DNA of 64,000 nucleotides from an uncultured Candidatus Saccharibacteria bacterium (lineage in GTDB: Bacteria; Patescibacteriota; Dojkabacteria; J137), in NCBI GenBank assembly GCA_964437465.1, contig CAYTGI010000005.1:5203-69202 (forward strand). The letters are read 5' to 3'. This document shows, piece after piece, positions 5,053 to 62,910 of this stretch. The first letter of the stretch is position 1. Every line of letters begins with the position of its first letter. The notes under the pieces are model-generated. The model saw only the letters and a list, made by a program, of their open reading frames with translations, made no database searches and was not told the DNA's origin. The position numbers and the translations under genes are program-made.

Positions 5053-5092
5053 AAAGTAATTATAACCAATAAGTACTAAGGTACCTAGGTAC

Positions 5093-5121
5093 TTGAGTAC
5101 AATAGTATTAATTTGTATAAT
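5093..5121 (+). promoter_or_regulatory. Sigma70-like promoter (TTGAGT-N17-TATAAT)
   Basis: -35 at 5093-5098 and -10 at 5116-5121 with a 17-nt spacer. Confidence 0.45.
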
Positions 5122-5127
5122 TGCGAC

Positions 5128-5169
5128 ATGAAATTCAGATTTTATTATTACTACTTATACCTGACCTAG
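5128..5169 (+). CDS. Tyr-rich leader peptide MKFRFYYYYLYLT (putative attenuator leader for tyrA)
   Basis: 13-codon ORF with 5 Tyr and 2 Phe codons between the promoter and a terminator hairpin, immediately upstream of prephenate dehydrogenase. Confidence 0.45.
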   Translation: MKFRFYYYYLYLT

Positions 5170-5197
5170 GGAGTTAGTAATATTTGTATGATAATAG

Positions 5198-5225
5198 AAG
5201 CTCCTAAAAAGGGAGCTTTTTTTTG
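5198..5225 (+). terminator. Rho-independent terminator / attenuator hairpin
   Basis: aagctcc-taaaaa-gggagct followed by T8. Confidence 0.55.
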
Positions 5226-5256: not shown

Positions 5257-6009
5257 ATGAAATATACAGTTGGAATCATTGGAAATGGGAGGTTTGGAGA
5301 TATGCTTTATAAGACGTTTGATAGATTTGGTAAGAACGATTTTAAAGTAAATATGTTCTCTAGAAGTTATGACCATAATAATGCAAAAGTTAAAAGTAAA
5401 AATTCAAAAAGATTTAGCTCATTAGATGAAGTGTGTTCTTCAGACATTATTATCCCTGCAGTTCCTATTTCTGTTTTTGAAAAACAAATAATTGATATTA
5501 AGGGCTTAGTACCAGAAACATCATTAGTTGTTGATGTTTGTTCCGTAAGTGTTCATCCTGCTAAGGTAATGCTCAAAAATCTAAAGTGTGATCTTCTTTC
5601 AACTCATCCAATGTTTGGTCCGGATTCTTCTAAAGATGCTACTGATTTTAAAGATTTAAAATTCATACATCATCCACTCAAAGTAACTAACCAAGAAAAG
5701 GAAGATGCATTTCTTTCTTTTTGGAAAGAACTTGGATGTGACATGAGACAGCTAACCCCAGAAGAACACGATAAACAGGCAGCATACACTCATGCATATG
5801 CTTTTTTAATAGGTAAGATAGGTATTATGATGGAAGTTAGAAGAAATGATATATCTACAAAAGGCTTTGAGGGTGTTTTGTACAACCAAGAAGCTGTTGA
5901 AAACGATACGAGCACGCTTTTTAACGATATGTTTACTTATAACCCTTTTGCAAAAGAGATGGTGTCTAGATTTATTAAGACAGTAAAGGAGATACAAGGT
6001 AGGTTATAG
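5257..6009 (+). CDS. tyrA: Prephenate/arogenate dehydrogenase
   Basis: N-terminal Rossmann GIIGNGRFG, plus PAVPI and STHPMFGP motifs. Confidence 0.8.
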   Translation: MKYTVGIIGNGRFGDMLYKTFDRFGKNDFKVNMFSRSYDHNNAKVKSKNSKRFSSLDEVCSSDIIIPAVPISVFEKQIIDIKGLVPETSLVVDVCSVSVHPAKVMLKNLKCDLLSTHPMFGPDSSKDATDFKDLKFIHHPLKVTNQEKEDAFLSFWKELGCDMRQLTPEEHDKQAAYTHAYAFLIGKIGIMMEVRRNDISTKGFEGVLYNQEAVENDTSTLFNDMFTYNPFAKEMVSRFIKTVKEIQGRL

Positions 6010-16941: not shown

Positions 16942-19194
16942 TTAATCAAATTTAATACTTTGTATTATTTGATCACATTCTGAGTAGTTATTATTGTTAG
17001 AAGAACAAGAAGCTACTAGTAACTTGTTTGAATCGTTTAAGTATCTAAAACTAGATTCAGCACAATCATTTTCCCTTGGAGCAACAATAGCTGGACAGTT
17101 GTTATCTAAGTAAACTTTATCTGTGTAGAAAACTGAATTTGTATCATTAAAGCTTACTCGATATAATTCTCCTACATTATCAATTTCTCCTATTAAAACA
17201 TAATCAGCAACTATATTTGGGTATGCCTCATAAGGAATTCCAATATCTAAAGTACTGTTCTCAGTACTAATTGTAATTCCATCAAGGTAAGTAGAATTTT
17301 CTACCACATTAAATCCGCTTGGAACAGAGAGATTATAATATTTTAACATAGCCCCAAGTGAATCTACAAAATCTTCAGTAGAAATAGTATAGGTTGTGCC
17401 ATAAGAAATTGGCTCGCCACTTAAATATCTCAAACTATTTAAAATCTCAATGACTGCTTCAAGATTTAATTCATCTACTCCTCTAACACTTACAGTACCA
17501 ACATTAACCTCAATTCCTCCAAAAATTCTTCCATTACCTTCACATAAACTAATATCTGAGTATATCTGTTGATTAACGTTGATTGGTTTTTGAGTACCAT
17601 TACATCGTCCGTCATTAGCTCTATTTGTAACAAAAAATGACAGACCATCCCCAGCAAAAGTTAGATTACTTCCTCCTTCATCTCCTGTCCCTTGAGTCTC
17701 ACAAGACCAGTTTTCAGGGATTGAGAATCCAATACCAAGAACAGAATCGTTACAAACTTTGGTAGCCTTTTCAACTTCTCCAATAGCTTCTATACTATTG
17801 AAAAATTCGATAGCCTCTTGATTATCATTTAAGAATGTATCGATCTCAATAACTTTATTTCCATATTGAAATAAATATTTATTAGGGAAGAAATCGGCTA
17901 TTCCAACAATACCTAACTTTGTAACATTTGTACCAAAAAGAGTAATCTCTTCTTGGGCGGTTATTCCATAGTTAGCTATACCTGTTGGTTGCTCAGCATA
18001 AATCCTCTCAAGCTCACTTATTCTATTTTGAACAGCTCCGTTACTATATGTAACTAGTACAAGAGACTCATCTACACAACCAAGTCCACATGGAAACCCA
18101 ACAAATCTTTCAGGAGTATAGAAAATTGTCAATGAATTACCATTCTCAAACTCGTTTTCTTGTATAACAAAGAATTTATTTTCAGTTGTAAATTGATCCT
18201 CCCCAGTTATAAATTCAATACCTTCATAGCTATCTTGTTTTGGTAAATTAAAGCTAATACCGTATTCTTCATAGGTGAATTTTTCAAAGGAAGTATTTAT
18301 TTCATTATCTTCATCCTGTTCTTGAACAATAGGGGTTGGCTCAGGTTCTGGGGCAGGCTGATTGTTATTAACAGCAACAGCACCAATGCCAATTCCAGCA
18401 CTTGCAAGTAAAATAGAACTACCAGCTATAATTTTAGCTGTTGTTGTGGCTAGTAAACCTCCACTAGCAGAGGCTGTAGCAACAGAACTTCCAGAAGAAG
18501 CTCCAATAGCGGCACCTGCAGCAGCACCAGTTAAATTTGTCATATTTGTTAAAGTAACACCTAAAGTAGATCCAACAGCTGAAGCAATAGCAGCCGAGCT
18601 CGAAGCGGTCATTGCATAAGCAGGTTGGACAGAAACACCTAATATTCCAGCTAGAATAATAGGTATAGAAACAGTTTTTAAAGCTAGAGATTTTTCTTCT
18701 CTAGAGACTGACAATTTAAGATCTTCAATCCCTCTATAAAATCTTTTCTTAACAGAATCAACACCCATTTCAACAATTGAAGCTATTTCATTAAAGCTCA
18801 TTTCATCCCAGATTCTCATAATAATAATATCTGAGGTCACTTCATCCATATCTTTTAATTTTTCTTCAATGTATTCAATTGTTAACCCATTCACCACTTC
18901 ATCTTCGAATGAGCTCATGCTCTTCTCAACCTCTTCCTCGAAATTTTCTGTATGAGTAGTATCTTTCGTGCTTTTTTTAGTTTGTTGGTTATAAATCATA
19001 TTTCGACTTACTTTAAAGAGCCAAGCTCTTTTGTTTTCAATAAAATCAAATTCCTCATTTTCAAATAAAGCAATAAACGCTTCAGATGCAATATCTTGAG
19101 CTTCTTCATTATTTCCAAGCCGAAACTTACAAAATCTGAAAATTTCAGGTGAATGCTCTTTATATACTTTTTCGAAAACTTGTTCTTTGTTCAT
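16942..19194 (-). CDS. ECF sigma factor fused through TM / low-complexity segment(s) to a large C-terminal domain
   Basis: Sigma70 region 2 (FRFCKFRLGNNEEAQDIASEAF) and region 4 (IIIMRIWDEMSFNEIASIVEMGVDSVKKRF), then a hydrophobic, Ala/Gly/Ser-rich segment and a ~480-aa domain. Confidence 0.7.
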   Translation of the reverse strand: MNKEQVFEKVYKEHSPEIFRFCKFRLGNNEEAQDIASEAFIALFENEEFDFIENKRAWLFKVSRNMIYNQQTKKSTKDTTHTENFEEEVEKSMSSFEDEVVNGLTIEYIEEKLKDMDEVTSDIIIMRIWDEMSFNEIASIVEMGVDSVKKRFYRGIEDLKLSVSREEKSLALKTVSIPIILAGILGVSVQPAYAMTASSSAAIASAVGSTLGVTLTNMTNLTGAAAGAAIGASSGSSVATASASGGLLATTTAKIIAGSSILLASAGIGIGAVAVNNNQPAPEPEPTPIVQEQDEDNEINTSFEKFTYEEYGISFNLPKQDSYEGIEFITGEDQFTTENKFFVIQENEFENGNSLTIFYTPERFVGFPCGLGCVDESLVLVTYSNGAVQNRISELERIYAEQPTGIANYGITAQEEITLFGTNVTKLGIVGIADFFPNKYLFQYGNKVIEIDTFLNDNQEAIEFFNSIEAIGEVEKATKVCNDSVLGIGFSIPENWSCETQGTGDEGGSNLTFAGDGLSFFVTNRANDGRCNGTQKPINVNQQIYSDISLCEGNGRIFGGIEVNVGTVSVRGVDELNLEAVIEILNSLRYLSGEPISYGTTYTISTEDFVDSLGAMLKYYNLSVPSGFNVVENSTYLDGITISTENSTLDIGIPYEAYPNIVADYVLIGEIDNVGELYRVSFNDTNSVFYTDKVYLDNNCPAIVAPRENDCAESSFRYLNDSNKLLVASCSSNNNNYSECDQIIQSIKFD

Positions 19195-19284
19195 TTATCT
19201 ATAAGTCAAAATAAAATAAAAAAAGTGACAAAAATATAAAAAAGGCCATCAATAAAGATAGCCTTAAATATTTGTAAAATTTTA

Positions 19285-19596
19285 CTATCTTCTACTTCTT
19301 TCCTGTCTTTCTAGTGAATCAATAATTCCTTGTACTGCACCGTCATCGATAACTTGATCGCACATTAATTCTGTACACAAAACTTCTCCATTAGCACAAA
19401 CACACTGGTTACATGAATCACCTGCAGGGAAATTATTTCCAGTTTTATACATTGCTCCATTATATTGACATGTATTATTACCCCTTTCTAAAAAGCCTTC
19501 ACTATCAATAACCATAAATCCTAGAGCAAGAGCTAATATAACCGCAAAAGTTGTAATTACAGCCATAATTAGCATTGGCGAACTTGGTTTTTTCAT
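19285..19596 (-). CDS. Small membrane-anchored VWC-like cysteine-module protein
   Basis: CQYNGAMYKTGNNFPAGDSCNQCVCANGEVLCTELMC. Confidence 0.5.
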   Translation of the reverse strand: MKKPSSPMLIMAVITTFAVILALALGFMVIDSEGFLERGNNTCQYNGAMYKTGNNFPAGDSCNQCVCANGEVLCTELMCDQVIDDGAVQGIIDSLERQERSRR

Positions 19597-19614
19597 TTAG
19601 TTAAGAATAATAAA

Positions 19615-20400
19615 TTAAAATGTCATTCTAGAGATAATTTCGTCAGCCTCATTCATATTAATTTCGCTATCTGCTGACCCTGAAATCTCAATATATCCTC
19701 TATCAACTCCTCCCTCAGTTAAATATCCAAGTTCGGAAAGTATTAAGCTTGTCTCTAGGCAGCCATCAGAAGCTTGAGCTGAGTTCTCATTAACAGACAG
19801 ATATTGATAATCAGGATTGTCGCTTGTAAGTATTCTGGATATATCATCAGTAATATCTGCTCTACTTTCAATCTCACAGCTAAATCCAAAAACACTTGAA
19901 GGAGCTGAAGGTATTACAGCATTCATTGTTAATTCTGTATCTTTTTCTATGTGGCTCAGAACGTGTAATTCTTCATTATCGCTAAGATCAGAAGTTAATT
20001 CCCATATACAATTATTGTATGAAAAAGTAAACTCTGGGAGTATAGTGCTTTCATATTGAATGTCATTACACTCTGTTTCATCATCAAAAAATTCACTAGT
20101 TTCGTTAGGTGGCAAGGTATTTTCATCATTATCTACTAAGTAAGAGTCATTTCCTTCTGCTTTACAATCTATTTCGGTACAAGCAACATCACCATCAGAA
20201 CAAGTACACGTATTGCATCCATCCCCTGCATTAAAACTTTCACTCGAATCGTACATTACACCATTATATTGGCATGAAGAAATAGGATTTGGTTTTAAGG
20301 CATCTTGGCTTTGTAGAATGTAGTAACCTAAAACAAGACTAATAATTACAAAGAATCCAGCGATAAGAGAGACAATTGTTAGTTGTGTTTGTTTATTCAT
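19615..20400 (-). CDS. Membrane-anchored VWC-like module + acidic domain protein
   Basis: CQYNGVMYDSSESFNAGDGCNTCTCSDGDVACTEIDC. Confidence 0.5.
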   Translation of the reverse strand: MNKQTQLTIVSLIAGFFVIISLVLGYYILQSQDALKPNPISSCQYNGVMYDSSESFNAGDGCNTCTCSDGDVACTEIDCKAEGNDSYLVDNDENTLPPNETSEFFDDETECNDIQYESTILPEFTFSYNNCIWELTSDLSDNEELHVLSHIEKDTELTMNAVIPSAPSSVFGFSCEIESRADITDDISRILTSDNPDYQYLSVNENSAQASDGCLETSLILSELGYLTEGGVDRGYIEISGSADSEINMNEADEIISRMTF

Positions 20401-20402
20401 AA

Positions 20403-21254
20403 TTAAATTTTTGTGATAGTATTTAAAATTCCGAATTGTTTTAGAATATCATCAGTTTGAAGTTGTTGTTCAATAGCTTCTTCAAGAGAGGCAGCATCAG
20501 GTATGTTACCGAAGCAATCGTTATATCCTCCATCAATTCTGATAATTGCTACAATATCTTCATAAAGAGGATAATGGTATAAATTAGTTATAAAATTCCT
20601 ATACCCTTGATTAGGGTCCTCAAAGTCACATGGAACTCCTTCTCTGTTAGATCCTTTTATTGGAATTATTTCTTGATTATCAACTTCTACTATGGGTAAT
20701 TCCTCAGTTATGTCAGTTATCTTATATGCTCTTGTAAAAACATCTTCTTCAGTAAAAATATCCTCAGTTATTGAAATTTCTAAGCTGTACTTTACGTAAG
20801 TATCTCCATCTTCAGTCAGGTCAGTTTTAATCAGCCTTAGGAAATCCTCCTTCGGTTCTCCTTCAATCTCAAAGTCATCAGGATAAAAAAAACTAAAGCC
20901 TAATTCCTCCGATTCAAAGTAATTATTAAAAGTAAAAATGCTGCTTCCAATTGTGATTTCTTTTTCTTCTATAACCCCATTATGTTCCACTAAATAGCTG
21001 TCATTTTCTTCACTTTTACAATCAATCTCAGTACATATAACCTCACCATCTGCACAAACGCATTGATTACATCCATCCGCAGCGTTGAAACTCTCACTAG
21101 ACTCGTAAGTAACTCCATTATACTGACATGACGTAGGTCCATTATTTGTCTGCATGTCTTGCTCAATAACATTAAACCCAGCAAAAAGGGCTACACCGAT
21201 TGCAATTGTAACTATTACAACTACTGCGATTGTTGGTTTATCATATTTTGACAT
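20403..21254 (-). CDS. Membrane-anchored VWC-like module + acidic domain protein
   Basis: CQYNGVTYESSESFNAADGCNQCVCADGEVICTEIDC. Confidence 0.5.
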   Translation of the reverse strand: MSKYDKPTIAVVVIVTIAIGVALFAGFNVIEQDMQTNNGPTSCQYNGVTYESSESFNAADGCNQCVCADGEVICTEIDCKSEENDSYLVEHNGVIEEKEITIGSSIFTFNNYFESEELGFSFFYPDDFEIEGEPKEDFLRLIKTDLTEDGDTYVKYSLEISITEDIFTEEDVFTRAYKITDITEELPIVEVDNQEIIPIKGSNREGVPCDFEDPNQGYRNFITNLYHYPLYEDIVAIIRIDGGYNDCFGNIPDAASLEEAIEQQLQTDDILKQFGILNTITKI

Positions 21255-28029: not shown

Positions 28030-28308
28030 TCAATAAACATAATCATGGCCTCCAATAGTAAGAAGAAGCACAATATCATCACCGTCAAAGTCCCAAATTA
28101 TTCTAATATCTCCATTAATCCTTGAACTATAGACTTTTCCATAATTGGGTAAGTTCACTTTGTGTGTCTTTAAAGAATTATCGAACGGGTTTCTACTTAA
28201 TTTTTCAACTTTTGAATTTATTAGACTAAAAAGATATCAATTATTCCTGATGAGCTTTAGATATTCTCTCTTGTATTTTGAAGTTGGTAGTATTTTAATC
28301 CTCCTCAT
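28030..28308 (-). pseudogene. RelE/ParE-family toxin with an in-frame TGA (codon 24; + coordinates 28237-28239)
   Basis: MRRIKILPTSKYKREYLKLIRNN*YLFSLINSKVEKLSRNPFDNSLKTHKVNLPNYGKVYSSRINGDIRIIWDFDGDDIVLLLTIGGHDYVY. The ATG overlaps the upstream antitoxin stop (ATGAGGAGGATTAA). Confidence 0.55.
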
Positions 28309-28609
28309 TGTCTACTTCCTCTAACATTTTTTCGTGAAATTCACGAATGTCTTGGGGAGTAGTTAGTGTCTCGTATTGTCCATTTTCGTAGTCTTCCCTA
28401 GCTTCTTTTACATCTTTTTCAAGCTTAGGGGTTCCGTACTCTACTGGAAGGTTTTTGGGGATTTTTATCCTGGAATATTCACGGTCTCTTTTAAGAGTAG
28501 ATAGAGCTAATTTAACGATCTCAGCTCGATCTAAACCTTCATAATGCTTTTCTAAAAAAGCGATTACTGGTTCTAGTTCTTTTGTTATTGTTACTCTAAT
28601 TGAACTCAT
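28295..28609 (-). CDS. RHH-type antitoxin (RelB/ParD-like)
   Basis: IRVTITKELEPVIAFLEKHYEGLDRAEIVKLALSTL looks like a ribbon-helix-helix, and the ORF overlaps the toxin start. Confidence 0.5.
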   Translation of the reverse strand: MSSIRVTITKELEPVIAFLEKHYEGLDRAEIVKLALSTLKRDREYSRIKIPKNLPVEYGTPKLEKDVKEAREDYENGQYETLTTPQDIREFHEKMLEEVDNEED

Positions 28610-28738: not shown

Positions 28739-28782
28739 AAAAGACAAAAGACAAAAGACAAAAGACAAAGATAAAAGACAGA
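28739..28782. repeat. (AAAGAC)n hexamer tandem repeat, ~7 units
   Basis: aaagacaaaagacaaaagacaaaagacaaagataaaagacaga. Confidence 0.8.
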
Positions 28783-28857
28783 TAATTAAGGTAATTAAGT
28801 ATGAAATTCTCAGATATTAATAATTTGCACTGAAAGCATGGGGAATTATAATTTATT

Positions 28858-28897
28858 GGTACATTGGTACATTGGTACATTGGTACATTGGTACTTA
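28858..28897. repeat. (GGTACATT)x5 octamer tandem repeat
   Basis: Five near-perfect copies that abut the stop of ORF 28895-29155. Confidence 0.9.
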
Positions 28898-29155
28898 TTT
28901 ATAAATTTCCTCTAATTTCCCAATATTTAGAAAAATTATGTAGTTTTCTTTAATTCTAAAGAGAACAACAATTTCTTTGTAAATTACTACCTGGTAGAGG
29001 TCGAGTTTAAGGTAGGTAAACTCTGAAAGATCTATTTTTCCTTTTTTATCCGTAATTTCTTTTAGAAAATTATTGAATTGAGATTTAACTGATTTTTCCT
29101 CACTGACAGTTGTTTTGTAGTTTTTTACGAACAGGTAGCCGAAAACAATTTCCAC
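28895..29155 (-). CDS. RelE/ParE-like toxin candidate
   Basis: C-terminal YQVVIYKEIVVLFRIKENYIIFLNIGKLEEIYK resembles the RelE beta-sheet region; 3 nt downstream of the RHH antitoxin. Confidence 0.4.
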   Translation of the reverse strand: MEIVFGYLFVKNYKTTVSEEKSVKSQFNNFLKEITDKKGKIDLSEFTYLKLDLYQVVIYKEIVVLFRIKENYIIFLNIGKLEEIYK

Positions 29156-29158
29156 AGG

Positions 29159-29446
29159 TTATACAGATTTAAGGTACTCTATCGCGTCTTTACTGTTACT
29201 AAATAAAGGAATATCTCCATCTTTAACTTTTTTATAAGCTTCCTCGGAGTTTAAATAGTATTTCATAGCAGCTTCTTCACTAATCTCATTATTAAAACCA
29301 AAGCTTGTTTTCTTATTCTTGTAATTAGCGATAAAAACACGAACTAACTCTTGAAGGGAAGAGAATCCCTCCTCCTGAGCGAGTTTTTCAGCCTCATCTC
29401 TAAGGTTTTTCGGAAGTCGAACTTGAAGATTTACACCTACTGCCAT
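29159..29446 (-). CDS. RHH (CopG-like) antitoxin
   Basis: VNLQVRLPKNLRDEAEKLAQEEGFSSLQELVRVFI. Confidence 0.55.
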   Translation of the reverse strand: MAVGVNLQVRLPKNLRDEAEKLAQEEGFSSLQELVRVFIANYKNKKTSFGFNNEISEEAAMKYYLNSEEAYKKVKDGDIPLFSNSKDAIEYLKSV

Positions 29447-29632
29447 GAATGTAATTTAATATTTATATTACAATTGTAACAGTTTGGTAATAAAAGATAA
29501 AGTATTCATGTATATATGTATACACGTAGACATGTAAACACGTATGCGCGTATGAAAAGATTTTGACTTAAAAATACTAAAGAAACATTATTAGTTGGTG
29601 AGTTGGTACTTAGGTAGGAGAATATGAGTTCT

Positions 29633-29912
29633 TTAATTATTATACACCTGGTTATGAGTACCAACTGCAAGAAAAATGTAACTATCTTTTGTTTCTTTAA
29701 ATATAATTCGTAAGTCAGAATTAATGAAGCCTATGGACTCAAGTCCAAGCATGTTACCATGCAGCTTGTGGCGATAAATTGCTATATGAAAAGGATCATC
29801 TTCAAAAAATTCGTAATAAGTTAAGAAACTCATTTTTAAAAGTTTGATTAAAGCGGATTCTATTCTTATAGTTCTTTCTGAATGTTTTACTAAAGACGAT
29901 CTTTTTAGTCAT
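29633..29912 (-). pseudogene. YafQ/RelE-family toxin interrupted by a frameshift in an A6/T6 run (+ coordinates 29804-29809)
   Basis: N-terminus MTKKIVFSKTFRKNYKNRIRFNQTFKNEFLNLLRIF in one frame and C-terminus EDDPFHIAIYRHKLHGNMLGLESIGFINSDLRIIFKETKDSYIFLAVGTHNQVYNN in another. Reading T5 gives a full 91-aa toxin. The ATG overlaps the antitoxin stop. Confidence 0.5.
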
Positions 29913-30198
29913 AATCCTCACTAGTTAAGTCATTTAGAGCATCTGACATGCTGTTGAATGACGGGGACTTTTTCTTTGGGTTATTCTCTTCTACAAGGCT
30001 CTTTAGGGCCAACTTCAGAGTCTTTTTATTCAAAGAAAATTGTGAGGTCTGTCGAATTAATATATTTCCTTTAGCGTATTGTGTAGCAAGGAATGTGTTT
30101 AGCGAAGCTAATGTAGGAAACCCATCCTCAAGGGCTTTTTCCTTAAGGGTCTTCTCAAGCTCTTCTTCTAATCTATAGGTAATAACTTTTTTACTCAT
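29905..30198 (-). CDS. RHH-like antitoxin (probable start at internal Met, MSKKVITYRLEE...)
   Basis: GFPTLASLNTFLATQY resembles the neighbouring RHH antitoxin; the ORF extends to 30294 from an upstream Met. Confidence 0.45.
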   Translation of the reverse strand: MSKKVITYRLEEELEKTLKEKALEDGFPTLASLNTFLATQYAKGNILIRQTSQFSLNKKTLKLALKSLVEENNPKKKSPSFNSMSDALNDLTSEDYD

Positions 30199-30313
30199 AT
30201 CAACAAAATAATAGCATTTTATAGATATTTTGTCATTAAATGCTCGTTGAAGCCTAAGTATGAAAATACTTAGAAAATGGTTGATATGAAACACGAAAGA
30301 AGCATAATTCTTT

Positions 30314-30369
30314 GGTACGTTGGTACGTTGGTACGTTGGTACGTTGGTACGTTGGTACGTTGGTACATG
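30314..30369. repeat. (GGTACGTT)x6 + GGTACATG octamer tandem repeat
   Basis: Perfect tandem copies between TA modules. Confidence 0.9.
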
Positions 30370-30390
30370 AATACACCTCTACTAGTTAAA

Positions 30391-30789
30391 CTAAATTATT
30401 GCTTTGTCGTAATTCTTAAGAATCTTTTTGTCTGCAGTAGCTAATTTTGAATTACTTAATAACGCTTCTGAAGTAATAATTCGATCAAATGGGTCTCGTG
30501 TCCAAGAAATTGTTTTCACAATTTTGATTAGGTCGCTAAGCTTTGAATCCCTTACTTCAAGTCCAAGTTCAATTTCAAGTGTATGAATTATGTCTTCAGG
30601 TTTGACTGTTATCTTTTTTAAATCAAAAAGATATTGAAGCTCTAATTCTATGAAACTGCTTATGAAGAGTGGGTGTTTGTTTAATTAATTCTTGCACTTT
30701 AGAGAGAATCTGCTTACCTCACCAGCATACAAAAATATTACAGCGTTAGTATCTAGGTAAACTAGTTCAGATTTTCTTTTTCTTTCCAT
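30391..30789 (-). pseudogene. VapC-like PIN-domain toxin with an in-frame TAA (+ coordinates 30685-30687)
   Basis: MERKRKSELVYLDTNAVIFLYAGEVSRFSLKCKN*LNKHPLF...ISWTRDPFDRIITSEALLSNSKLATADKKIL, i.e. the PIN D-T-N and C-terminal acidic motifs. Confidence 0.55.
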
Positions 30790-31016
30790 TCTGAATCTAT
30801 ATCAAAAGTTTTAATCTTGGGGATGTCTTTAAAGCTCGTATTCTGACCTAAAATATTTCTTTTCTTAAGATTATTGAGCTTATCTGTAGGTTTATTCTTG
30901 GAAATTATAACAGTCTCGCCGTTTTTTTCTATTTCTACAGGTATTCCTGTTTCGATAACACTATCTATTACCTTATAAATCTTTTTTCTTAATTCTGTAG
31001 TAGTTAAAGTTTTCAT
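30762..31016 (-). CDS. Phd/YefM-like antitoxin
   Basis: TTELRKKIYKVIDSVIETGIPVEIEKNGETVIIS; the toxin start overlaps its 3' end. Confidence 0.5.
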   Translation of the reverse strand: MKTLTTTELRKKIYKVIDSVIETGIPVEIEKNGETVIISKNKPTDKLNNLKKRNILGQNTSFKDIPKIKTFDIDSEWKEKENLN

Positions 31017-31847: not shown

Positions 31848-33098
31848 ATGATGAAATTTAGCACGATCCTAGTAGTACTGGCACTCCTGATGCTGTCCGC
31901 TGTGAGCGTGAACGCACAGGACGACGAACCTGAATCAACACCCGCGACGGTTACCTTGGATTATTTCAGCGGCGAAAGTATCGCGCAGTCCCCGGACGGC
32001 ACGTTTGAAATCGTGGTTCACGAAGAAGGCACAGCGTTGTGGTCCGATAGCACCAATGGCAGCCTGATCACTGAAGATCTGGCTTTCGACGCGATGGTGA
32101 ACGACGCTGGGCAATTCGCTTTGCTTATTGCACACGATGAAAGCGGTGAGTTGATCACAGGCGATCTTGCCGACGTGGCGTTTGGCACTCTCTCATACGA
32201 AGAAGGTTACTTCACTCGACTCGCAATGTCGTGGAATAGCGCAATTTGTGTTGAGCAGATCGACTTCAACGCCAATCGTATTCAGCTTGAGCATGAAGAC
32301 ACTGCGGAAATCGAATGTGCCTCGCGGTTTTCCGGCGATCTGTGGTCCGATGCTTTCGACATATATGTCGCACAGTACAACGAGTCTCCGGCGACCTACC
32401 AGAGCGTGGACGAAGAATTCGTTCTCACCGAAAGCGTGACCTTCAGGACTGAAGACATGTCATTGGTTGTCAACGGAATGACATTCCAAATCATGCTGGA
32501 CGGTAGCTTCCTGCAACACATCTACGGCGTCGAAAATGGCTCATTAACAATCTGGACAACAGAAGGGGTATATACAGGACAACTCCGCGACTATGTTGAT
32601 GTTACCCAGGCTGTGTTTGAACCGGCTATGGTTTTAAGCGTGGCTGAAAACGGGTGTGCGCTCCGAATCATGGAGGCGACTGGTACTGTTATTTTACTGA
32701 GCCAACAAGGCTATAACTTCGCCGGTTGCGACGAGATTGATGCGCAAGAAGGTTTTGAACTCGCAATGAACGTGCACCCCCCGATGATTGAAACTCCTCC
32801 AACGGTACATTACGACATGTCCAATCAGACGGAAGCCTGCTGGATTCGCATCGGCATCGGCGATTCTTTGGCGATAATCGAAGAAGATCAGAACTATGAT
32901 GAGATTTTCAGCGTCATGGACTTCGAGATTCGCTCTGATCAGAACAATTCATCGTTCAGGTACCCAAGCAACCTTCCAGAAGGGTGGAACGGACTATTCA
33001 ACCAGTACACTACGGCAGGTGGGCCAGAAGACCTCATCAGCTTGAATGGTGCTTTTGAAGACCCTGAGTCAGGCACGCCCTACTGCTCGGCTGATTAA
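31848..33098 (+). CDS. GC-rich secreted acidic protein (likely horizontally acquired)
   Basis: Signal peptide MMKFSTILVVLALLMLSAVSVNAQ. GC content and codon usage are markedly higher than in the rest of the window. Confidence 0.6.
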   Translation: MMKFSTILVVLALLMLSAVSVNAQDDEPESTPATVTLDYFSGESIAQSPDGTFEIVVHEEGTALWSDSTNGSLITEDLAFDAMVNDAGQFALLIAHDESGELITGDLADVAFGTLSYEEGYFTRLAMSWNSAICVEQIDFNANRIQLEHEDTAEIECASRFSGDLWSDAFDIYVAQYNESPATYQSVDEEFVLTESVTFRTEDMSLVVNGMTFQIMLDGSFLQHIYGVENGSLTIWTTEGVYTGQLRDYVDVTQAVFEPAMVLSVAENGCALRIMEATGTVILLSQQGYNFAGCDEIDAQEGFELAMNVHPPMIETPPTVHYDMSNQTEACWIRIGIGDSLAIIEEDQNYDEIFSVMDFEIRSDQNNSSFRYPSNLPEGWNGLFNQYTTAGGPEDLISLNGAFEDPESGTPYCSAD

Positions 33099-33124
33099 AA
33101 GTCTCGCCCCTGGCCATTGACGGA

Positions 33125-33157
33125 CCTAAAGCGCTTACATAGGCTTTAGGTTTTTTC
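33125..33157 (+). terminator. Rho-independent terminator
   Basis: cctaaagc-gcttacatag-gctttagg followed by T6. Confidence 0.6.
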
Positions 33158-33339
33158 GAGAGAAGGGTCGGCTTATACAGCGATTCTTCTTTCCCATTCT
33201 TTAGGAATCCTATTTAGGATATCTAAAGAAAAATCTTTACCCCCTTTCTTTTGAAAAAAAGAAATTAGCTTCGCAGCATCTCAGTTTGTTACACCGTCCG
33301 AGTACTGAAGTACCAAAGTACCTATGTACTTAAGTACCT

Positions 33340-33702
33340 TTATACCTTCGTACTATAAAATGTCTTTAATTTCCTCAGCATATGAATAACCTCCTTCGTT
33401 TTCTTATCTATTTCTTCGTAATTTTCGCTTGTCAAGTATTGTAGATCTTTACTTAATTTTAGAAAATACCCTAGCTCATAAGCTGACGCTAGAGATATAC
33501 TTAAAAATCTTATAAATTCCTTCCTACTATCTCTACTACTCCCCTCTACAATATTTGAGGGAATAGAATAGCTTGCCCTTCGCATTTGACTAACTAATCC
33601 GTACTGTTCTGTTTTAGGAAATGATTTAGTAGAAGTGTAAATATTAATTGTAAGGTTATGTGAATATTCCCACACCTTTAGCTTAGTATAATCGTGCATC
33701 AT
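33340..33702 (-). CDS. Four-helix-bundle protein (23S rRNA IVS / Avd-like family)
   Basis: LKVWEYSHNLTINIY...FPKTEQYGLVSQMRRASYSIPSNIVEGSSR matches the family signature. Confidence 0.65.
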   Translation of the reverse strand: MMHDYTKLKVWEYSHNLTINIYTSTKSFPKTEQYGLVSQMRRASYSIPSNIVEGSSRDSRKEFIRFLSISLASAYELGYFLKLSKDLQYLTSENYEEIDKKTKEVIHMLRKLKTFYSTKV

Positions 33703-33768
33703 GTTTTCGTTAATAGTTAAACATGGGGAATACTCTAGTACCTGAGTACATTAGTACTTGTATACATT

Positions 33769-34104
33769 CTACATCACAAGCATCTCGTTAATGATGGATT
33801 TTATCTGACTAATTATTTTCTTATCGGCCTTGTCTATTTGGCTGAAAATACGCTTTTTATCTACTGTTCTTATTTGATCAAGCATAATCCATCCAGTTCT
33901 ATTTTCTACTTTCACCTTTATTCTTGTTGGGTAATCTTTTGACTTAGAAGTTATAGGAGCGATTATTATAGTTCTGAGATTAAAATTCATCTCATTTGGA
34001 GAAATTACAATACACGGTCTTGTCTTTTTTATCTCTGAGCCTATTGTAGGATCTAAATTTATCCAGTAAATAGTATATTGTTCTATTCGTTGTCCCATGC
34101 CCAC
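33769..34104 (-). CDS. mazF: MazF/PemK-family mRNA interferase toxin
   Basis: YWINLDPTIGSEIKKTRPCIVIS...APITS...LDQIRTVDKKR. Confidence 0.7.
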   Translation of the reverse strand: MGMGQRIEQYTIYWINLDPTIGSEIKKTRPCIVISPNEMNFNLRTIIIAPITSKSKDYPTRIKVKVENRTGWIMLDQIRTVDKKRIFSQIDKADKKIISQIKSIINEMLVM

Positions 34105-34340
34105 TCTTCATTATCCAAATCTATATTATCCTCCAAAACATCTTCATTAGATTCGTGCATTTTCTTAAATGCATTGTTCCATCCAGATCTAGGAGATTTT
34201 TTCAGTGGGGTTAGCGTAATAATACCATTTTCTTTTTTTATTTCTAGCTCTTCTTTTAAGTCTAATTTCATTTCCTCAAGCAAAACAGAAGGGATTCTAA
34301 TTCCCTTTGAATTTCCAATTTTTACTATTTTTGTATTCAT
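34083..34340 (-). CDS. mazE: MazE/AbrB-type antitoxin
   Basis: KIVKIGNSKGIRIPSVLLEEM SpoVT/AbrB fold with an acidic tail; overlaps mazF. Confidence 0.65.
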   Translation of the reverse strand: MNTKIVKIGNSKGIRIPSVLLEEMKLDLKEELEIKKENGIITLTPLKKSPRSGWNNAFKKMHESNEDVLEDNIDLDNEEWAWDNE

Positions 34341-34643: not shown

Positions 34644-35396
34644 ATGAAATCATTTGGCGGTAAAATTCTAAAGTTTATTTTGATACTTCTATATCCAGTT
34701 ATAGTTGTTCTTTTAATCGCAGTTTCAGTTGTCCTATTCTTAAGAATGCGAGATGTAGATAACGCTTTAGATAAATATAACGAGATTTATTCAACTTACG
34801 ATATTCAAGGAACTCCTAAACAGAACATTTCTAACGCAATGGAAGATGCAAGAGAGATTGTAGGAGAGCTATTTATGGGGCTAGAAGAGAGCTCAAGAGA
34901 GATTGAAAGTTTAAGAAATCAGGTAGAAAGTGAGCAAAAGGATGGATTCGGAGAGATTAGAGGAAGAATTTTAGCTTTTGTTTCTCAAGGAGAGAGTTTA
35001 AATAGATACCAAAGAGTTTGCGCTGAAGTTACTGAAAATGCAAATAAGCAGTACTGTGTTTCTGTTTCAGCAATTGAAGCGAGTTACAACCTAGTTGTTC
35101 CTGAAGGTGAATATTACGTATTCGCCCAGCTTCAAGATGACCCTACAAGTACTGAAAAAGCATACTATACTGAATTTGTAAGATGCTCAAAAGAAGGAAG
35201 TGGGAGATGTGAAGAAAGTCTTTCAGATACAAAGATTTTAGTTACTGTTGATTCGGGAGGTATAGTTCAAGGGATTGATCCAATGGACTGGCCAACGATT
35301 GATGATCTAACAATTCCTACTGATAATGTTGAGGAGCCTGAGGATAGTGTTGAGGAAGAGCAAGCTGAAGAGTCAGCTCCTGAAGAAGGTCAATAA
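34644..35396 (+). CDS. Membrane-anchored protein with an acidic C-terminus (hypothetical)
   Basis: N-terminal TM helix and a Glu-rich tail. Confidence 0.35.
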   Translation: MKSFGGKILKFILILLYPVIVVLLIAVSVVLFLRMRDVDNALDKYNEIYSTYDIQGTPKQNISNAMEDAREIVGELFMGLEESSREIESLRNQVESEQKDGFGEIRGRILAFVSQGESLNRYQRVCAEVTENANKQYCVSVSAIEASYNLVVPEGEYYVFAQLQDDPTSTEKAYYTEFVRCSKEGSGRCEESLSDTKILVTVDSGGIVQGIDPMDWPTIDDLTIPTDNVEEPEDSVEEEQAEESAPEEGQ

Positions 35397-35470
35397 TACC
35401 TTACTACTTAGCTACCTCAGTACATTGGTACTCTATAGTGACAAACTAATAAAAAGTTGTATAATAAATC

Positions 35471-39394: not shown

Positions 39395-39471
39395 TTTATT
39401 TTGGACTAAAGTCTAGTAACTGAAAACTAGTAACTAGAAACTAAATAACTATTAACTATTAAATTCGAGCA

Positions 39472-59295: not shown

Positions 59296-62200
59296 CTACC
59301 ACCTAGTATAAAGTAAACTCTCATGATCACCCTCCTCTTTTGGAATCTCCTGCCAGATCCTTTCACTAATAAAAGGCATAAACGGATGGAGCATTTTTAG
59401 ATATTCTTTAAGAGCAAGTAATAGAACTTTTTGAGCTTCTCTCTTCTCTTCTGGTTTAGCCTCACTAATAATTTCACCAGTTTCTTTATCCTTGAATGTG
59501 TAGATGAATGGTTTTAATGCTTCAATGTATACGTCAGCGAACTCATGCCAGAATCCTTGGTATAAATTATAAGTTGCATGTCCGAATTCAAACTCTTCAA
59601 TATTTTTTGTTATATGTTCTTTAGTCACCTTTACATGCTTAAATAACTTTTTTATTTCTTTAATTTTTAAATCACTCTCCTCTACTCCATAAACTGAGTG
59701 ATCAGCTTTATCCATATCCTCTAAATTCATTAGAACAAACCTTGAAGCATTCCAAATCTTATTGGCAAACTTTTTAAATGTATCTAATTTCTCATGAGTC
59801 ATAGAATAATCTCCTCCAGCTGAGTTTTGGTAGAAGAACACCATTCTAATTGCATCAGTACCGTACTTCTCTCTTAGATCATCAATATACAAAATATTAC
59901 CTTTAGACTTACTCATCTTCTGTCCATCGCTTGCCTTAACAAGACCTGTTAGGAAAAGATTTTTAAAAGGAATATTTCTGTATTTAAAGTAAGTAAACAT
60001 CATCATTCGACTATCCCAATTCTCTAGAATGTCATAAGCTGAAACTAAAACATCACTTGGGAAGAATGTATCCATTAAGTCATATTTACTTAATGTAGCG
60101 TAAACCCACTGACCAGAGCTGAACCAAGTGTCGAGAACGTTTTCGTCTTGGTTCCATTCGGAAGTTGTAAGTTTTGAGTTATGAGTTTCGAGTATTGAGA
60201 ATAGCTTCTCAGAGTAACTACTTGAGTCTTCAGATGCATAATGACCTTTACCTTTTTCTAAGATTACTTGGTCAGCGTTAACTAATTCACCAAATTTTTT
60301 AAACTCTTCTACTGTTCCATGCCGATCATTATCTGAGTGTATTATTATTATTTCTCCGACATATTTTCTTATGTTTTCATAATCTTCAGTTTCTGTTATT
60401 AGTTCTACATATTTACTATCCTTACCATCTTCTCTTGGAACCATTCTGATTCCTGGAGCAAGCATAATTAACTTATTTACTTTAATTTTATTTTCTAAAC
60501 AATATTTAATAAATGCTCTAGCACCAAGAGAATGAGTAACTATTATATCCTTATCAGTAAATTCTATATCATCAAAACCTTCTTTGTAGAATTTATATTC
60601 AGGATTATGAATATTCTTTACAGGAATAATCTCAGTATTATCAAACTTTGCCTCAATCTCTGGATAAATATCTCTGTATGCATAGCCATGTTTCCCAGGT
60701 ATTAAAATAATCTTGCTGTCTGATAACTTGTCAGGACTTTCTTTCTGTACTCTTAAATGATTAGGATTATCGTACTCAAGCTCTACCCACTCATCAGTAC
60801 CTGAAATTTTAATCATCTCACGGACTTGACCGTCAGATCCGATATCTTCTTTAACTTCGCCATGGTACCAAACAGGAAGTCTATAACCCCACCATAATGA
60901 TCTCGATATCGCCCAGTCTCTAAGGTTATTCATCCAGTGGTTATATTTTGAAGTCATTGATTCAGGGTGTAGGGTGATTGCTAACTTATCTGAATCTTTT
61001 TGAGAGGACAAACCATGGTTTGTCCCTACAAGCTTAGAGGAAGCGTTAAATATTTCAATTGCCTGATCAATTTCTTTATCACTCATATCTAAATTAGAAT
61101 CATCTCCATGAACATTTTTAATCATCTTTATAGCAGCTTCTCTAATTCCGTCATATTTTAAGTACCACTGAGAAGATAGGAGAGGCTCGATTGGAGCTTT
61201 TGTTCGCTCAGCTATTTGAATTCTATTTTCATATTTCTCATCAACAAAAACTAAGTTTCCATGTTCCTTCATATCGGGACGCATCTCTTCTCTTGCATTC
61301 TTAGCCTTAATTCCTGAGTATTTCCCAGCAAGGTCATTAAGCTTTAAATCGTAGCCAATAACTTGGATTGCAGGTAAACATTCTTTAGGATGTCTTTGAC
61401 CTATCTCCCAATCCTCTGGAGAGTGGGCAGGGGTAACTTTTAGAAGACCTGTTCCAAAGTCTTTATCTACAGCATAGTCAGAGATAAAGTTTAGCTTTTT
61501 CTTTTCTCCTAAGAACTCAACCTCAATTTCTTTTCCAACAAAATCTTTATATCTTTCATCTTTTGGATCGCACGCGATAGCAGTATCAGCAAAAATAGTC
61601 TCAGGTCTTACAGTTCCAATTACAAATCCATTTCGATAATACTTATCTTCTGAATACTCTTCGAACTTAATTATGTGCGAGCCTGGATAATACTTTGATT
61701 CAAAGTTAAAAATCTCAAAGATTTCTGAATCAAGATCTTCATCAAAGCTCTCGTTAACTATGACGATTTTGTAATTTTCATCTAAGCTCATATGAACTCC
61801 GATTGCTTTTCCAGTTACATCATTATCAATATCTTCGTCAGTGTATCCAATTCCGATAACAGGTAGTCCTTCCTCAGTTTCTCCATGCATAAATGGAAGA
61901 TCATTTTTCTTGTCTTTTGTTTTATTTCTTAATGCTTTAAATGCGACATTTTTGCCTTCATACTTTTGTTTTATCTCCAAAACTTCTTTGACTGGTTCTC
62001 CAATTAAATATTTAAAGTAGAAAAACGGAGTAACTGAATCTTTATACTCTACCTGATTATCAGCAACTGCTGATCTAGCTTTTGGATCCCAATTTACTAA
62101 CCGAACTCCTTTATAGATCATTCCATCTTTATACATTTCAATGAATGTATCTAAAACAATCTCAACAATATCTGGATCAAGGGTAAATGTATTTTTATCA

Positions 62201-62664
62201 AAATCTGCAGAAAGTCCAATATCTTGTTCATCCTTTAAAGCTTGCTCCATGTTCTGCTCAAAAAACTCCATCATCATTTCGTAGAACTTTTCTCTTTCTA
62301 GATCAAATTTATTAATCTTTTTCTTTTCTAGAACTTCTCTAACAAAAACTCCTTCTCCCTCTAATCCTGCGTGATCTTTTCCAGGTAGAACTAAAACTTT
62401 TTTTCCTTTCATTCTTTGATATCTAGCCATTGCATCCATGTATGCGTACCCAGAAATATTACCAATATGTGGTCTTCCGTAAGCATTAGGTGGAGGACAG
62501 ATTAGAGACCAAGCTTCTCGTTTATCATTTTTCATCTCTTCCTGTGAAAGAACTTTATTTGAATTAGGATCAAACTCAGGTTTATACATTCCTGATTCCA
62601 TCCATTTTTTTATTAAGTCTGCTTCGTGGTCTTTTGCGTTGTATCCTCCTTTTGGTAGTGCCAT
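59296..62664 (-). CDS. valS: Valyl-tRNA synthetase with an inserted alpha/beta serine-hydrolase domain (start ATG 62664 or TTG 62670)
   Basis: HIGN (PPPNAYGRPHIGN), CP1 editing motifs (TVRPETIFADTAI, GTGLLKVTPAHSPEDWEIGQRH), DWAISRSLWWGYRLPVWY, DTWFSS and KMSKSKGN. About 240 extra residues between PVWY and DTWFSS carry THSLG and HSDNDRHG...GKGHY hydrolase motifs. Confidence 0.85.
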   Translation of the reverse strand: MALPKGGYNAKDHEADLIKKWMESGMYKPEFDPNSNKVLSQEEMKNDKREAWSLICPPPNAYGRPHIGNISGYAYMDAMARYQRMKGKKVLVLPGKDHAGLEGEGVFVREVLEKKKINKFDLEREKFYEMMMEFFEQNMEQALKDEQDIGLSADFDKNTFTLDPDIVEIVLDTFIEMYKDGMIYKGVRLVNWDPKARSAVADNQVEYKDSVTPFFYFKYLIGEPVKEVLEIKQKYEGKNVAFKALRNKTKDKKNDLPFMHGETEEGLPVIGIGYTDEDIDNDVTGKAIGVHMSLDENYKIVIVNESFDEDLDSEIFEIFNFESKYYPGSHIIKFEEYSEDKYYRNGFVIGTVRPETIFADTAIACDPKDERYKDFVGKEIEVEFLGEKKKLNFISDYAVDKDFGTGLLKVTPAHSPEDWEIGQRHPKECLPAIQVIGYDLKLNDLAGKYSGIKAKNAREEMRPDMKEHGNLVFVDEKYENRIQIAERTKAPIEPLLSSQWYLKYDGIREAAIKMIKNVHGDDSNLDMSDKEIDQAIEIFNASSKLVGTNHGLSSQKDSDKLAITLHPESMTSKYNHWMNNLRDWAISRSLWWGYRLPVWYHGEVKEDIGSDGQVREMIKISGTDEWVELEYDNPNHLRVQKESPDKLSDSKIILIPGKHGYAYRDIYPEIEAKFDNTEIIPVKNIHNPEYKFYKEGFDDIEFTDKDIIVTHSLGARAFIKYCLENKIKVNKLIMLAPGIRMVPREDGKDSKYVELITETEDYENIRKYVGEIIIIHSDNDRHGTVEEFKKFGELVNADQVILEKGKGHYASEDSSSYSEKLFSILETHNSKLTTSEWNQDENVLDTWFSSGQWVYATLSKYDLMDTFFPSDVLVSAYDILENWDSRMMMFTYFKYRNIPFKNLFLTGLVKASDGQKMSKSKGNILYIDDLREKYGTDAIRMVFFYQNSAGGDYSMTHEKLDTFKKFANKIWNASRFVLMNLEDMDKADHSVYGVEESDLKIKEIKKLFKHVKVTKEHITKNIEEFEFGHATYNLYQGFWHEFADVYIEALKPFIYTFKDKETGEIISEAKPEEKREAQKVLLLALKEYLKMLHPFMPFISERIWQEIPKEEGDHESLLYTRW

Positions 62665-62910
62665 GTTCAAAGTATAAAAAGTACTTATGTACTTAAGTAC
62701 CTAGGTACTTGTGTACTATATATTCTTTGAGGACTACTCAATGGCAGTGGTACCACCTCTATTTCCCGATGAAGAATCGGAACACTTATTACAGCTATTT
62801 CGGGCATACCCGGAGGATTTTACTACTTTCGGTTCTTTCCTCAGCACACCTGTGACAAGCAAGTGTATTGCTTAACAGATTATATCTTAGTTTTTTACTA
62901 CGTGCCAGAA

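Follow-up and report, generated by a model that had tools for sequence, protein, structure and literature searches.

The stretch examined here, 64,000 nt of contig CAYTGI010000005.1 (assembly GCA_964437465.1, positions 5,203 to 69,202) from an uncultured Candidatus Saccharibacteria bacterium and hereafter called the window, carries a dispersed family of tandem octamers with a palindromic GTAC core. Two of these arrays bracket a gene for an S23p protein, a four-helix-bundle protein first found within the intervening sequences (IVSs) of 23S rRNA, and a survey of other genomes shows that S23p genes are in general bracketed by lineage-specific arrays of short period, the repeat unit of which tracks the S23p lineage. 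We therefore favor, with a probability of roughly 0.55, the view that the GTAC octamers are this host's version of the 7-8-nt repeat arms of S23p/IVS-type elements, together with copies lacking the open reading frame (ORF) and copies expanded by slippage. Short tandem heptamer families have been catalogued in bacterial intergenic DNA since 1990, and the structure of an S23p protein has been solved since 2006; nevertheless, we know of no function or origin for the former and of no role for the latter.

Seven arrays of GTAC cores at exact 8-nt spacing and one decayed copy are present in the window:

A1, 5071-5110: AAGTACTA AGGTACCT AGGTACTT GAGTACAA TAGTATTA, four GTAC units and one degenerate unit, between the start of an NpmA-like methyltransferase gene (5052, minus strand) and the tyrA-leader promoter.
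A2, 28857-28896: (TGGTACAT)x4 followed by TGGTACTT, perfect, abutting the stop codon of a RelE/ParE-like ORF (28895-29155, minus strand).
A8, decayed, 29590-29620: TTGGTGAG TTGGTACT TAGGTAGG, with only one intact GTAC, 13 nt past the stop of a frameshifted YafQ-like toxin gene.
A3, 30313-30376: (TGGTACGT)x6 followed by TGGTACAT and GAATACAC, perfect, about 15-25 nt past the stop of a frameshifted VapC-like ORF and at least 75 nt upstream of the promoter-like site of the third of three ribbon-helix-helix (RHH)-like genes.
A4, 33300-33355: seven units, the 3' arm of the S23p cassette, overlapping the last 16 nt of the S23p ORF.
A5, 33728-33767: five units (three GTAC and two ATAC), forming the cassette's 5' arm in the gap from the mazF stop (33769) to the S23p start (33702).
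A6, 35410-35433: three units, of which one has CTAC as its core, some 14 nt past the stop of the reading frame 34644-35396.
A7, 62679-62718: five units, including the palindrome AAGTACCTAGGTACTT, in the 5' untranslated region (UTR) of valS.

Read in a different register, A2 and A3 become (TTGGTACA)x5 at 28855-28894 and (TTGGTACG)x6.9 at 30312-30366, both 100% perfect.

When all GTAC sites of the window are paired, 24 pairs lie at a distance of 8, 18 at 16 and 12 at 24, and distances other than multiples of 8 have at most 2 pairs each. The three-core pattern GTAC-N4-GTAC-N4-GTAC has 17 matches and the four-core pattern 11, against none of either in shuffles (100 dinucleotide-preserving shuffles for the former). 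A periodicity scan blind to GTAC returned 8 as the commonest short period, with four of its five arrays being GTAC arrays, and Tandem Repeats Finder independently recovered A2, A3, A4, A5 and A7. Every array is centered in non-coding DNA, which makes up 14% of the window (P about 1e-6). The sequence-only reading that preceded this work had described a dispersed intergenic octamer family, had proposed a count against shuffled expectation, and had held that a uniform spread over coding and non-coding DNA would refute it; the counts, made here on the window, place the family far beyond chance, no such uniform spread is seen, the coordinates it gave are correct to within a few bases, and the 16-nt palindrome that it noted is indeed present, in A7.

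The degenerate arrays are informative as to which part of the unit is retained. Among their 23 units T4, A5 and C6 are invariant and G3 is kept in 20, while positions 1, 2, 7 and 8 vary, with weak biases to A, A, Y and T respectively. The consensus is consequently the palindrome AAGTACTT/AGGTACCT, of which AAGATCTT is the core-mutated counterpart. That four independent degenerate arrays have kept the core in spite of variable spacers points to sequence-specific recognition and not to slippage alone. As regards relationships among the arrays, A8, A2 and A3 have a common unit orientation of the GTACCAAC type, and A4 and A7 have in common a TATAGTAC lead-in and 14 of 20 spacer positions, a likeness that is suggestive of, and compatible with, a shared origin without being decisive. 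Since the A2 units are identical, we infer that this array, like A3, expanded recently through replication slippage. One contig from the Logan collection (L191) is identical to window positions 32625-34153 and therefore displays no copy-number variation.

The gene between A5 and A4 (33340-33702, minus strand) encodes a TIGR02436 four-helix-bundle/PF05635 23S-rRNA intervening-sequence protein, with 131.9 bits against the Pfam model and 126 bits against TIGR02436 (cut-off 24). Its best relative of solved structure is PDB 2gsc (XCC0516, five chains; E 2e-17). A5 lies 36 nt upstream of this gene and A4 overlaps its stop, so that the gene is bracketed by the two arrays. The predicted flank-to-flank A5/A4 duplex has an energy of -43.5 kcal/mol, against -32.7 for shuffles (z -2.3), and A4 alone forms a strong hairpin. 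Tandem short-period repeats at the element ends, a hallmark of IVSs, are seen in A4 and A5, and another hallmark, a PF05635/TIGR02436 ORF, only in the A5-S23p-A4 unit. As an Rfam search found no rRNA in the window and the cassette is located between mazF and a gene for a secreted protein, it is not an rRNA IVS in the strict sense.

Comparable arrangements were sought at S23p loci retrieved by protein identity from metagenomes and annotated plasmids. The first 20 of these (190 kb, comprising Patescibacteria, Cyanobacteria, one alphaproteobacterium and unidentified metagenomic contigs) were scanned for periods of 6-9 nt with an unbiased detector. Of 39 arrays with a period of 7 or 8, 30 fall within 210 nt of an S23p gene, a zone accounting for 8% of the 190 kb (binomial P about 3e-25). 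Nine more plasmid loci, including some from Bacteroidota and Gemmatimonadota, show a similar arrangement when read by eye, and arrays are present at roughly 27 of the 29 S23p loci examined outside the window. Examples of the units are as follows:

L194: GCTTGAG heptamers, with a perfect 33-bp inverted repeat.
L205, Nostoc: (TAGGGAG)n and (CTCCCTA)n.
L204, Pseudanabaena: about 15 AAAGCTA units.
L208, Anabaena 90: GGTGACA.
L212, Azospirillum: GACAGAG-like units, resembling the GACAGAT of Coxiella.
L221, Riemerella: AACCTTG x7, reaching the sufB ATG.
L195, L211 and L222: octamers, respectively AGCTTANN (with a palindromic 4-nt core), GGAGATAA and GGGCAGGA.

The two arms are usually inverted, and significant arm-to-arm pairing is found in about half of the loci. 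The genes typically reside within operons or defense islands, including cas6-cas4 (twice), cmr2-cmr3, leuA-leuB and, on the opposite strand, the space between the two ribonucleotide-reductase subunit genes. In three cyanobacterial plasmids (L204, L208 and L211) the S23p gene and its arrays have been inserted into CRISPR-cas operons, at the cas6/cas4 junction in two genera and also at a cmr2/cmr3 junction.

The unit is tied to the protein that it accompanies. Across 316 pairs of S23p proteins, all 9 pairs with the same unit are at least 74% identical, and no unit is common to both members in any of the 305 pairs below 65%; of the two other high-identity pairs, one has the near-identical units AAGGGAA and AGGGAAC. 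For example, the S23p proteins of Nostoc PCC 7120 and Stanieria are 80% identical and both accompanied by CTTCTGC, and those of Pseudanabaena and Calothrix are 74% identical and both accompanied by AAAGCTA. In the pairs L202/L210 and L204/L206, which come from different cyanobacterial orders and gene contexts, homology comprises only the gene and its arrays, to the exclusion of the neighboring genes, and ends at the arrays. The window protein is closest, among the loci compared, to two others tied at 54% identity, one with palindromic-core octamers (L195) and one with no arrays (L192).

A second line of evidence comes from the leader of valS. Upstream of this gene lies a T-box leader (62726-62885, minus strand; Rfam RF00230, 51.8 bits, E 1.3e-10, which is below the gathering score of 93), and A7 is situated between its antiterminator and the valS ATG (62664). 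The only strong promoter-like site, CTGGCA-18-TATAAT at 62908-62879, is upstream of the T-box, and A7 therefore belongs to the transcribed leader. No canonical terminator was recognized in this leader by eye or in a scan of the valS strand. A reading of A7 as a leaderless promoter, suggested by a TATACT box lying 6 nt upstream of the valS ATG, was dropped in view of the T-box and its upstream promoter-like site.

A structured T-box leader upstream of valS is conserved in several Dojkabacteria/Patescibacteria relatives, and in three of them (L001, L009 and L201) the order is T-box, array, S23p gene, inverted array and valS ATG. The arms of L001, TTAAGATTTAAGTAATAAGATCTAAGAC and GTCTTAGATCTTATGTCTTAAATCTTAT, consist of TCTTANN heptamers and are complementary at 26 of 28 positions by manual comparison; the same locus has an ORF-less hairpin of its TCTTANN heptamers upstream of the T-box. 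L009 has ATATCAG TTTTCAG CTATCAG before the S23p gene and TCTGATT TCTGATA ACTGATA after it, and L201 has (GTTNTAA)x4, a truncated S23p gene and (CTTANTA)x5. In L007 the S23p gene is directly upstream of valS, with no T-box in the preceding 300 nt and weak arrays. In L002-L006 and L008 the T-box directly precedes valS, and both the S23p gene and the arrays are absent. As these empty sites are free of arrays, the arrays are not a feature of the T-box-valS junction as such, but come with the S23p element. A7 thus fills the very slot in which related Dojkabacteria carry a heptamer-bracketed S23p gene. In the closest relative (L070), CTTANNN x5 and ACGTANN x4 precede valS at the point where the contig ends. 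An S23p cassette placed after the T-box and before valS, as in L001, L009 and L201, prompts one to ask how the T-box can keep control of the gene.

From these observations we infer that the remaining arrays represent either remnants of S23p elements or copies of them that have no ORF; IVSs that are reduced to the stem and have no ORF occur in enterobacterial rRNA. Several points weigh against this reconstruction. Only two of the eight arrays touch an S23p gene, the window has a single copy of that gene, and tblastn of the window detected no S23p ORF near the other six arrays, three of which (A2, A3 and A8) separate toxin-antitoxin cassettes. The pairing of A5 with A4 is modest, and a fold of the full 491-nt cassette leaves the arms unpaired in favor of local hairpins. 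Likewise, about half of the S23p loci elsewhere have no significant arm complementarity, which means that not every element has a stem. The nine GTDB loci and L070 have other units or none, so that no close relative with GTAC units came to light and movement of a GTAC array was not observed; about 170 kb from the nine relatives contained no 8-nt GTAC array. Furthermore, the association could equally have arisen by S23p genes inserting into existing arrays, and the co-variation of unit and protein can be explained by co-inheritance alone.

One competing account is that the arrays are functionless, slippage-prone repeats, with units of 7-8 nt growing easily in number in some genomes, hairpin arrays persisting in intergenic DNA and selfish genes (S23p, toxin-antitoxin) merely inserting there. 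The perfection of A2 and A3 is what recent slippage predicts, unrelated short-period arrays exist in the window (AAAAGAC x6 at 28739-28780 and AACTNNN x8 at 39405-39462), some cyanobacterial arrays are far from any S23p gene, and the excess of heptamers in bacteria has been ascribed to polymerase slippage (PMC4692102). However, neutral decay should strike all positions of the unit equally, whereas the TAC core is invariant and the spacers about 45% diverged in four arrays, and the unbiased periodicity scan of the window found no period-8 array with a core mutated throughout. Moreover, the unit tracks the S23p lineage across host orders with homology ending at the arrays, and the relatives' empty T-box-valS sites are devoid of arrays. 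We accordingly regard this account as unlikely. Still less probable, in our estimation, is a role of the arrays as RNA-level cis-regulators of translation or mRNA stability that are independent of S23p and bound by a single-strand binder; a binder of the cold-shock type has been proposed for the TAACTGA repeats of Beggiatoaceae, most of which end just before start codons (PMC4679880). In its favor, the distance from the end of the array to the ATG is about 15 nt for A7 (valS) and about 19 nt for A1 (methyltransferase), and the arrays of the relatives reach the valS ATG; yet most window arrays lie at the 3' ends of genes, the arms are usually inverted and so differ from one another as RNA sequence, and no candidate binder was identified. 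RNA structure was likewise rejected as a general explanation. The sequence-only reading had suggested that the GTAC cores could form hairpins, which holds for A4 (-21.1 kcal/mol, z -4.2), the only array significantly more stable than its shuffles, but not for the remaining arrays (z between -0.1 and -1.6). The same reading had offered terminators as a function: six arrays do start 0-25 nt after a stop codon, yet a window scan found no intrinsic terminator (G+C-rich stem and T run) coinciding with any of them.

A role as operators has to be weighed against the positions of promoter-like sites, bearing in mind that our promoter scans match the consensus only and are not evidence of function. In one form of this reading, a dimer of an RHH protein would occupy each palindromic GTAC box and bind cooperatively at the 8-bp spacing. 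This is in keeping with the 8-bp palindromic consensus, in which information is concentrated in a 4-bp core, and with the three RHH-like genes by A2, A8 and A3 (28295-28609; 29159-29446, a weak RHH_1 match; and 29905-30201), the second of which has a separate 8-nt array with a [CT]GTA core 50-105 nt upstream. A1 overlaps the TTGAGT -35 element (5093-5098) of a TTGAGT-17-TATAAT site through GAGTACAA, its fourth unit and the final one to retain GTAC, and A6 abuts the -35 of a GTGACA-16-TATAAT site. Against this, the best promoter-like sites of the RHH genes (28644-28615 and 30236-30208) are about 75-250 bp from A2 and A3 with no overlap, A7 lies in a transcribed leader downstream of both promoter and T-box, and six arrays follow stop codons. 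The RHH genes are, besides, antitoxins of unrelated cassettes, two of them with frameshifted toxins, and the proposal leaves the arrays at roughly 27 of 29 other S23p loci unexplained; we judge it distinctly improbable. The placement next to promoters that was described from the sequence alone is thus not supported for A7, A2 and A3, although the overlap noted there between A1 and the tyrA-leader -35 is reproduced here and A1 is the only array to overlap a -35 element. Taken together, the positions of the arrays relative to promoter and terminator sites mean that operator and terminator readings fit few of them. Next to negligible is the idea of LexA-type SOS boxes or of sites for a GTAC-specific (RsaI-like) restriction-modification system. 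The cyanobacterial LexA motif is RGTACNNNDGTWCB, which neighboring units such as AGTACTTATGTACT fit by construction; but arrays of 4-7 cores and perfect tandem copies are unlike LexA boxes, the neighbors (valS, the rRNA methyltransferase and toxin-antitoxin cassettes) are not SOS genes, and no lexA is present in the window. Nor was a DNA methyltransferase or restriction gene, which the sequence-only reading had proposed to look for, found among 53 of the 54 window ORFs of at least 100 aa and most small array-adjacent ORFs. The total of 184 GTAC sites in the window matches the expectation of 167-200, so that GTAC is neither avoided nor enriched overall.

A mobile-element or insertion-hotspot interpretation, likewise raised by the sequence-only reading, comes closest among the four options that it offered, but the hallmarks of miniature inverted-repeat transposable elements (MITEs), namely a terminal inverted-repeat consensus and target-site duplication, are missing. 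Unit number and spacers differ among the arrays, pairwise spacer identity is at most 0.75, and, beyond the array itself, A2 and A3 have flanks with only a weak alignment. We also considered integron-like attC sites between the toxin-antitoxin cassettes and discarded them, as an integrase is absent and the arrays are not built like attC sites.

Returning to the S23p-element reading, two mechanisms may be envisaged for the arrays. Phased units with an invariant 4-nt core could serve in cis as sites for a protein that binds as a multimer, and the most economical choice for this protein would be the pentameric S23p encoded between the arms; the fixed phase, the invariant core and the co-variation of unit and protein favor a multimeric sequence-specific binder of this kind. 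The S23p of Xanthomonas has been reported to be a pentamer (PMC4990558). Complementary arms may also form an IVS-like stem that could be cut by RNase III, which would allow insertion into an operon or leader to be tolerated. The inverted arms favor this, as does the precedent of Coxiella. The IVS there is regarded as selfish, contains an S23p ORF, has terminal inverted repeats that form a 28-bp stem cleaved by RNase III, and carries at its 5' end 3-4 tandem GACAGAT heptamers, the number varying among strains (PMC4990558). The two mechanisms are compatible. In a more tentative vein, it is conceivable that S23p proteins of the TIGR02436 family act in trans as the specific partners of short-period tandem repeats, each lineage reading a 7-8-nt unit of its own, possibly such that every subunit of the pentamer takes one unit. 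The dispersed families, such as the short tandemly repeated repetitive (STRR) sequences of cyanobacteria, GGGAATC and GTAC, would then be cis sites or ORF-less derivatives of elements that colonize operon spacers, mRNA leaders and rRNA.

The host is a Dojkabacteria-like bacterium of the Patescibacteria. Its valS product is at most 62-63% identical to those of GTDB species representatives, all of which are Candidatus Dojkabacteria, Saccharibacteria or other Patescibacteria, and the nearest other protein on record has 75% identity. The window valS (59296-62664) encodes 1122 aa, and most relatives, 880-930 aa long, cover just 57% of that length. In the Patescibacteria many valS genes are fusions with additional, variable domains (GNAT, histidine phosphatase or serine hydrolase). 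Between 28.8 and 34 kb the arrays separate small cassettes, all on the minus strand:

28295-28609, minus strand: orphan RHH-like gene.
28895-29446, minus strand: RHH and RelE/ParE-like genes.
29633-30201, minus strand: RHH gene and frameshifted YafQ-like toxin gene.
30391-31016, minus strand: Phd and frameshifted VapC-like toxin genes.
33340-33702, minus strand: S23p gene.
33769-34340, minus strand: mazEF.

The YafQ-like (29633-29921) and VapC-like (30391-30789) toxin genes are each split over two frames with the antitoxins intact, and are either decaying toxin-antitoxin cassettes or sequencing errors. An (AAAAGAC)x6 array (28739-28780) lies upstream of the orphan RHH-like gene in this island, and the separate 8-nt array with the [CT]GTA core (29497-29552; ATGTATAC ACGTAGAC ATGTAAAC ACGTATGC) is possibly the own operator of the RHH antitoxin 29159-29446. 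A 416-aa ORF at 31848-33098, with a signal-peptide-like start and no family match, falls within DNA of 43% G+C, compared with 33% for the window, and is probably foreign.

Elsewhere in the window, the rpoB-rpoC spacer (39405-39462) is filled by about eight AACTNNN heptamers, one of them an exact TAACTGA, which end about 10 nt before the rpoC ATG; this unit resembles the TAACTGA repeats of Beggiatoaceae and cyanobacteria. Upstream of the prephenate-dehydrogenase gene (5257-6009) a leader ORF MKFRFYYYYLYLT (5128-5169, plus strand) precedes a hairpin that resembles a terminator and has a T run (5196-5220, plus strand), and the leader as a whole (5128-5220) looks like a tyrosine attenuator. Three adjacent paralogs with a VWC-like cysteine-rich domain (19285-21254) stand beside a 750-aa sigma-70 region 2 protein (16942-19194), the group spanning 16942-21254.

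Scans of public collections for GTAC-NT-NN arrays returned 60 viral and more than 120 metagenomic matches, among which there was no S23p gene and no relative of the host. Most were perfect minisatellites of any G+C content, eukaryotic transposon ends (L158) or phage-like clusters (L021, L025 and L119). Phage-like contigs of 40-49% G+C (L021, L025, L041 and L064 from viral, and L119, L168 and L190 from metagenomic collections) have long, degenerate 8-nt-phased GTAC arrays, such as AAGTACGAAAGTACTTTCGTAC; these contigs contain no S23p gene, and BLAST of two such loci against annotated phages gave no useful match. In a Firmicute-like contig (L164, 1625-1745) GTAC octamers surround a TATAAT box upstream of a short-chain dehydrogenase gene, and this array looks like a genuine operator unrelated to S23p. 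Its likeness to FapR boxes was rejected because its spacing is 8, as opposed to the 7 of FapR boxes.

The window ties the unexplained heptamer-type repeat families to the S23p proteins and hints at the origin of several such families, with arrays of the kind that bracket S23p genes also occurring without the gene. If the link is causal, the rRNA intervening sequences would be only one habitat of a wider element that is also at home in CRISPR-cas operons, biosynthetic operons and riboswitch leaders. It would also counsel caution in annotation, where such arrays are not to be read as promoters or operators. In Xanthomonas a four-unit GGGAATC array overlaps the start of XCC0516, the crystallized S23p (PMC4692102, supplementary table). 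The same work describes the GGGAATC family of Xanthomonas and the GGGGAYT family of Nostoc as dispersed and unexplained heptamers (PMC4692102), and the TAACTGA repeats are known from Beggiatoaceae, cyanobacteria including Microcystis, and Bacteroidetes (PMC4679880). Neither of these papers on heptamer families (PMC4692102, PMC4679880) mentions S23p or IVSs, and a full-text literature search of incomplete coverage, which does not prove novelty, found no paper stating a general link between S23p and repeats.

Among known systems, MITEs and repetitive extragenic palindromic (REP) elements are similarly small, non-coding, dispersed, intergenic and hairpin-capable, but the GTAC arrays differ from them in having no full-length consensus, no distinct terminal inverted repeats and no target-site duplication. 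The tandem operators of RHH proteins, such as the met boxes of MetJ (AGACGTCT, 8-bp spacing), the ACTC-N4 arrays of ParG and the heptads of omega, share with them head-to-tail boxes of 7-8 bp in 2-10 copies with a short, partly palindromic core; the GTAC arrays, however, are mostly away from promoters and associated with S23p genes rather than with RHH-regulated operons, and no regulator that would be cognate to them was identified. The heptamer families (cyanobacterial STRR, GGGAATC, GGGGAYT and TAACTGA) are, like the GTAC arrays, tandem, dispersed and intergenic, with a single unit dominating in each genome, a copy number from 2 to about 10 or more, a frequent location at start codons, some inverted pairs and no accepted function. 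In the GTAC arrays, unlike these, the period is 8 instead of 7, and conservation is limited to four of eight positions with the spacers free. The 23S-rRNA IVSs of Coxiella burnetii and Leptospira (PMC4990558) resemble the window cassette in having a small four-helix-bundle S23p gene between terminal repeats. In contrast to those IVSs, which occupy helix 25 or 45, the window element lies in a toxin-antitoxin island and those of its relatives in an mRNA-leader slot, and the GTAC family has weak arm complementarity and is mostly ORF-less. What sets this family apart is thus its 8-nt unit with a palindromic core, its location outside rRNA, and its presence in a genome of the Patescibacteria.

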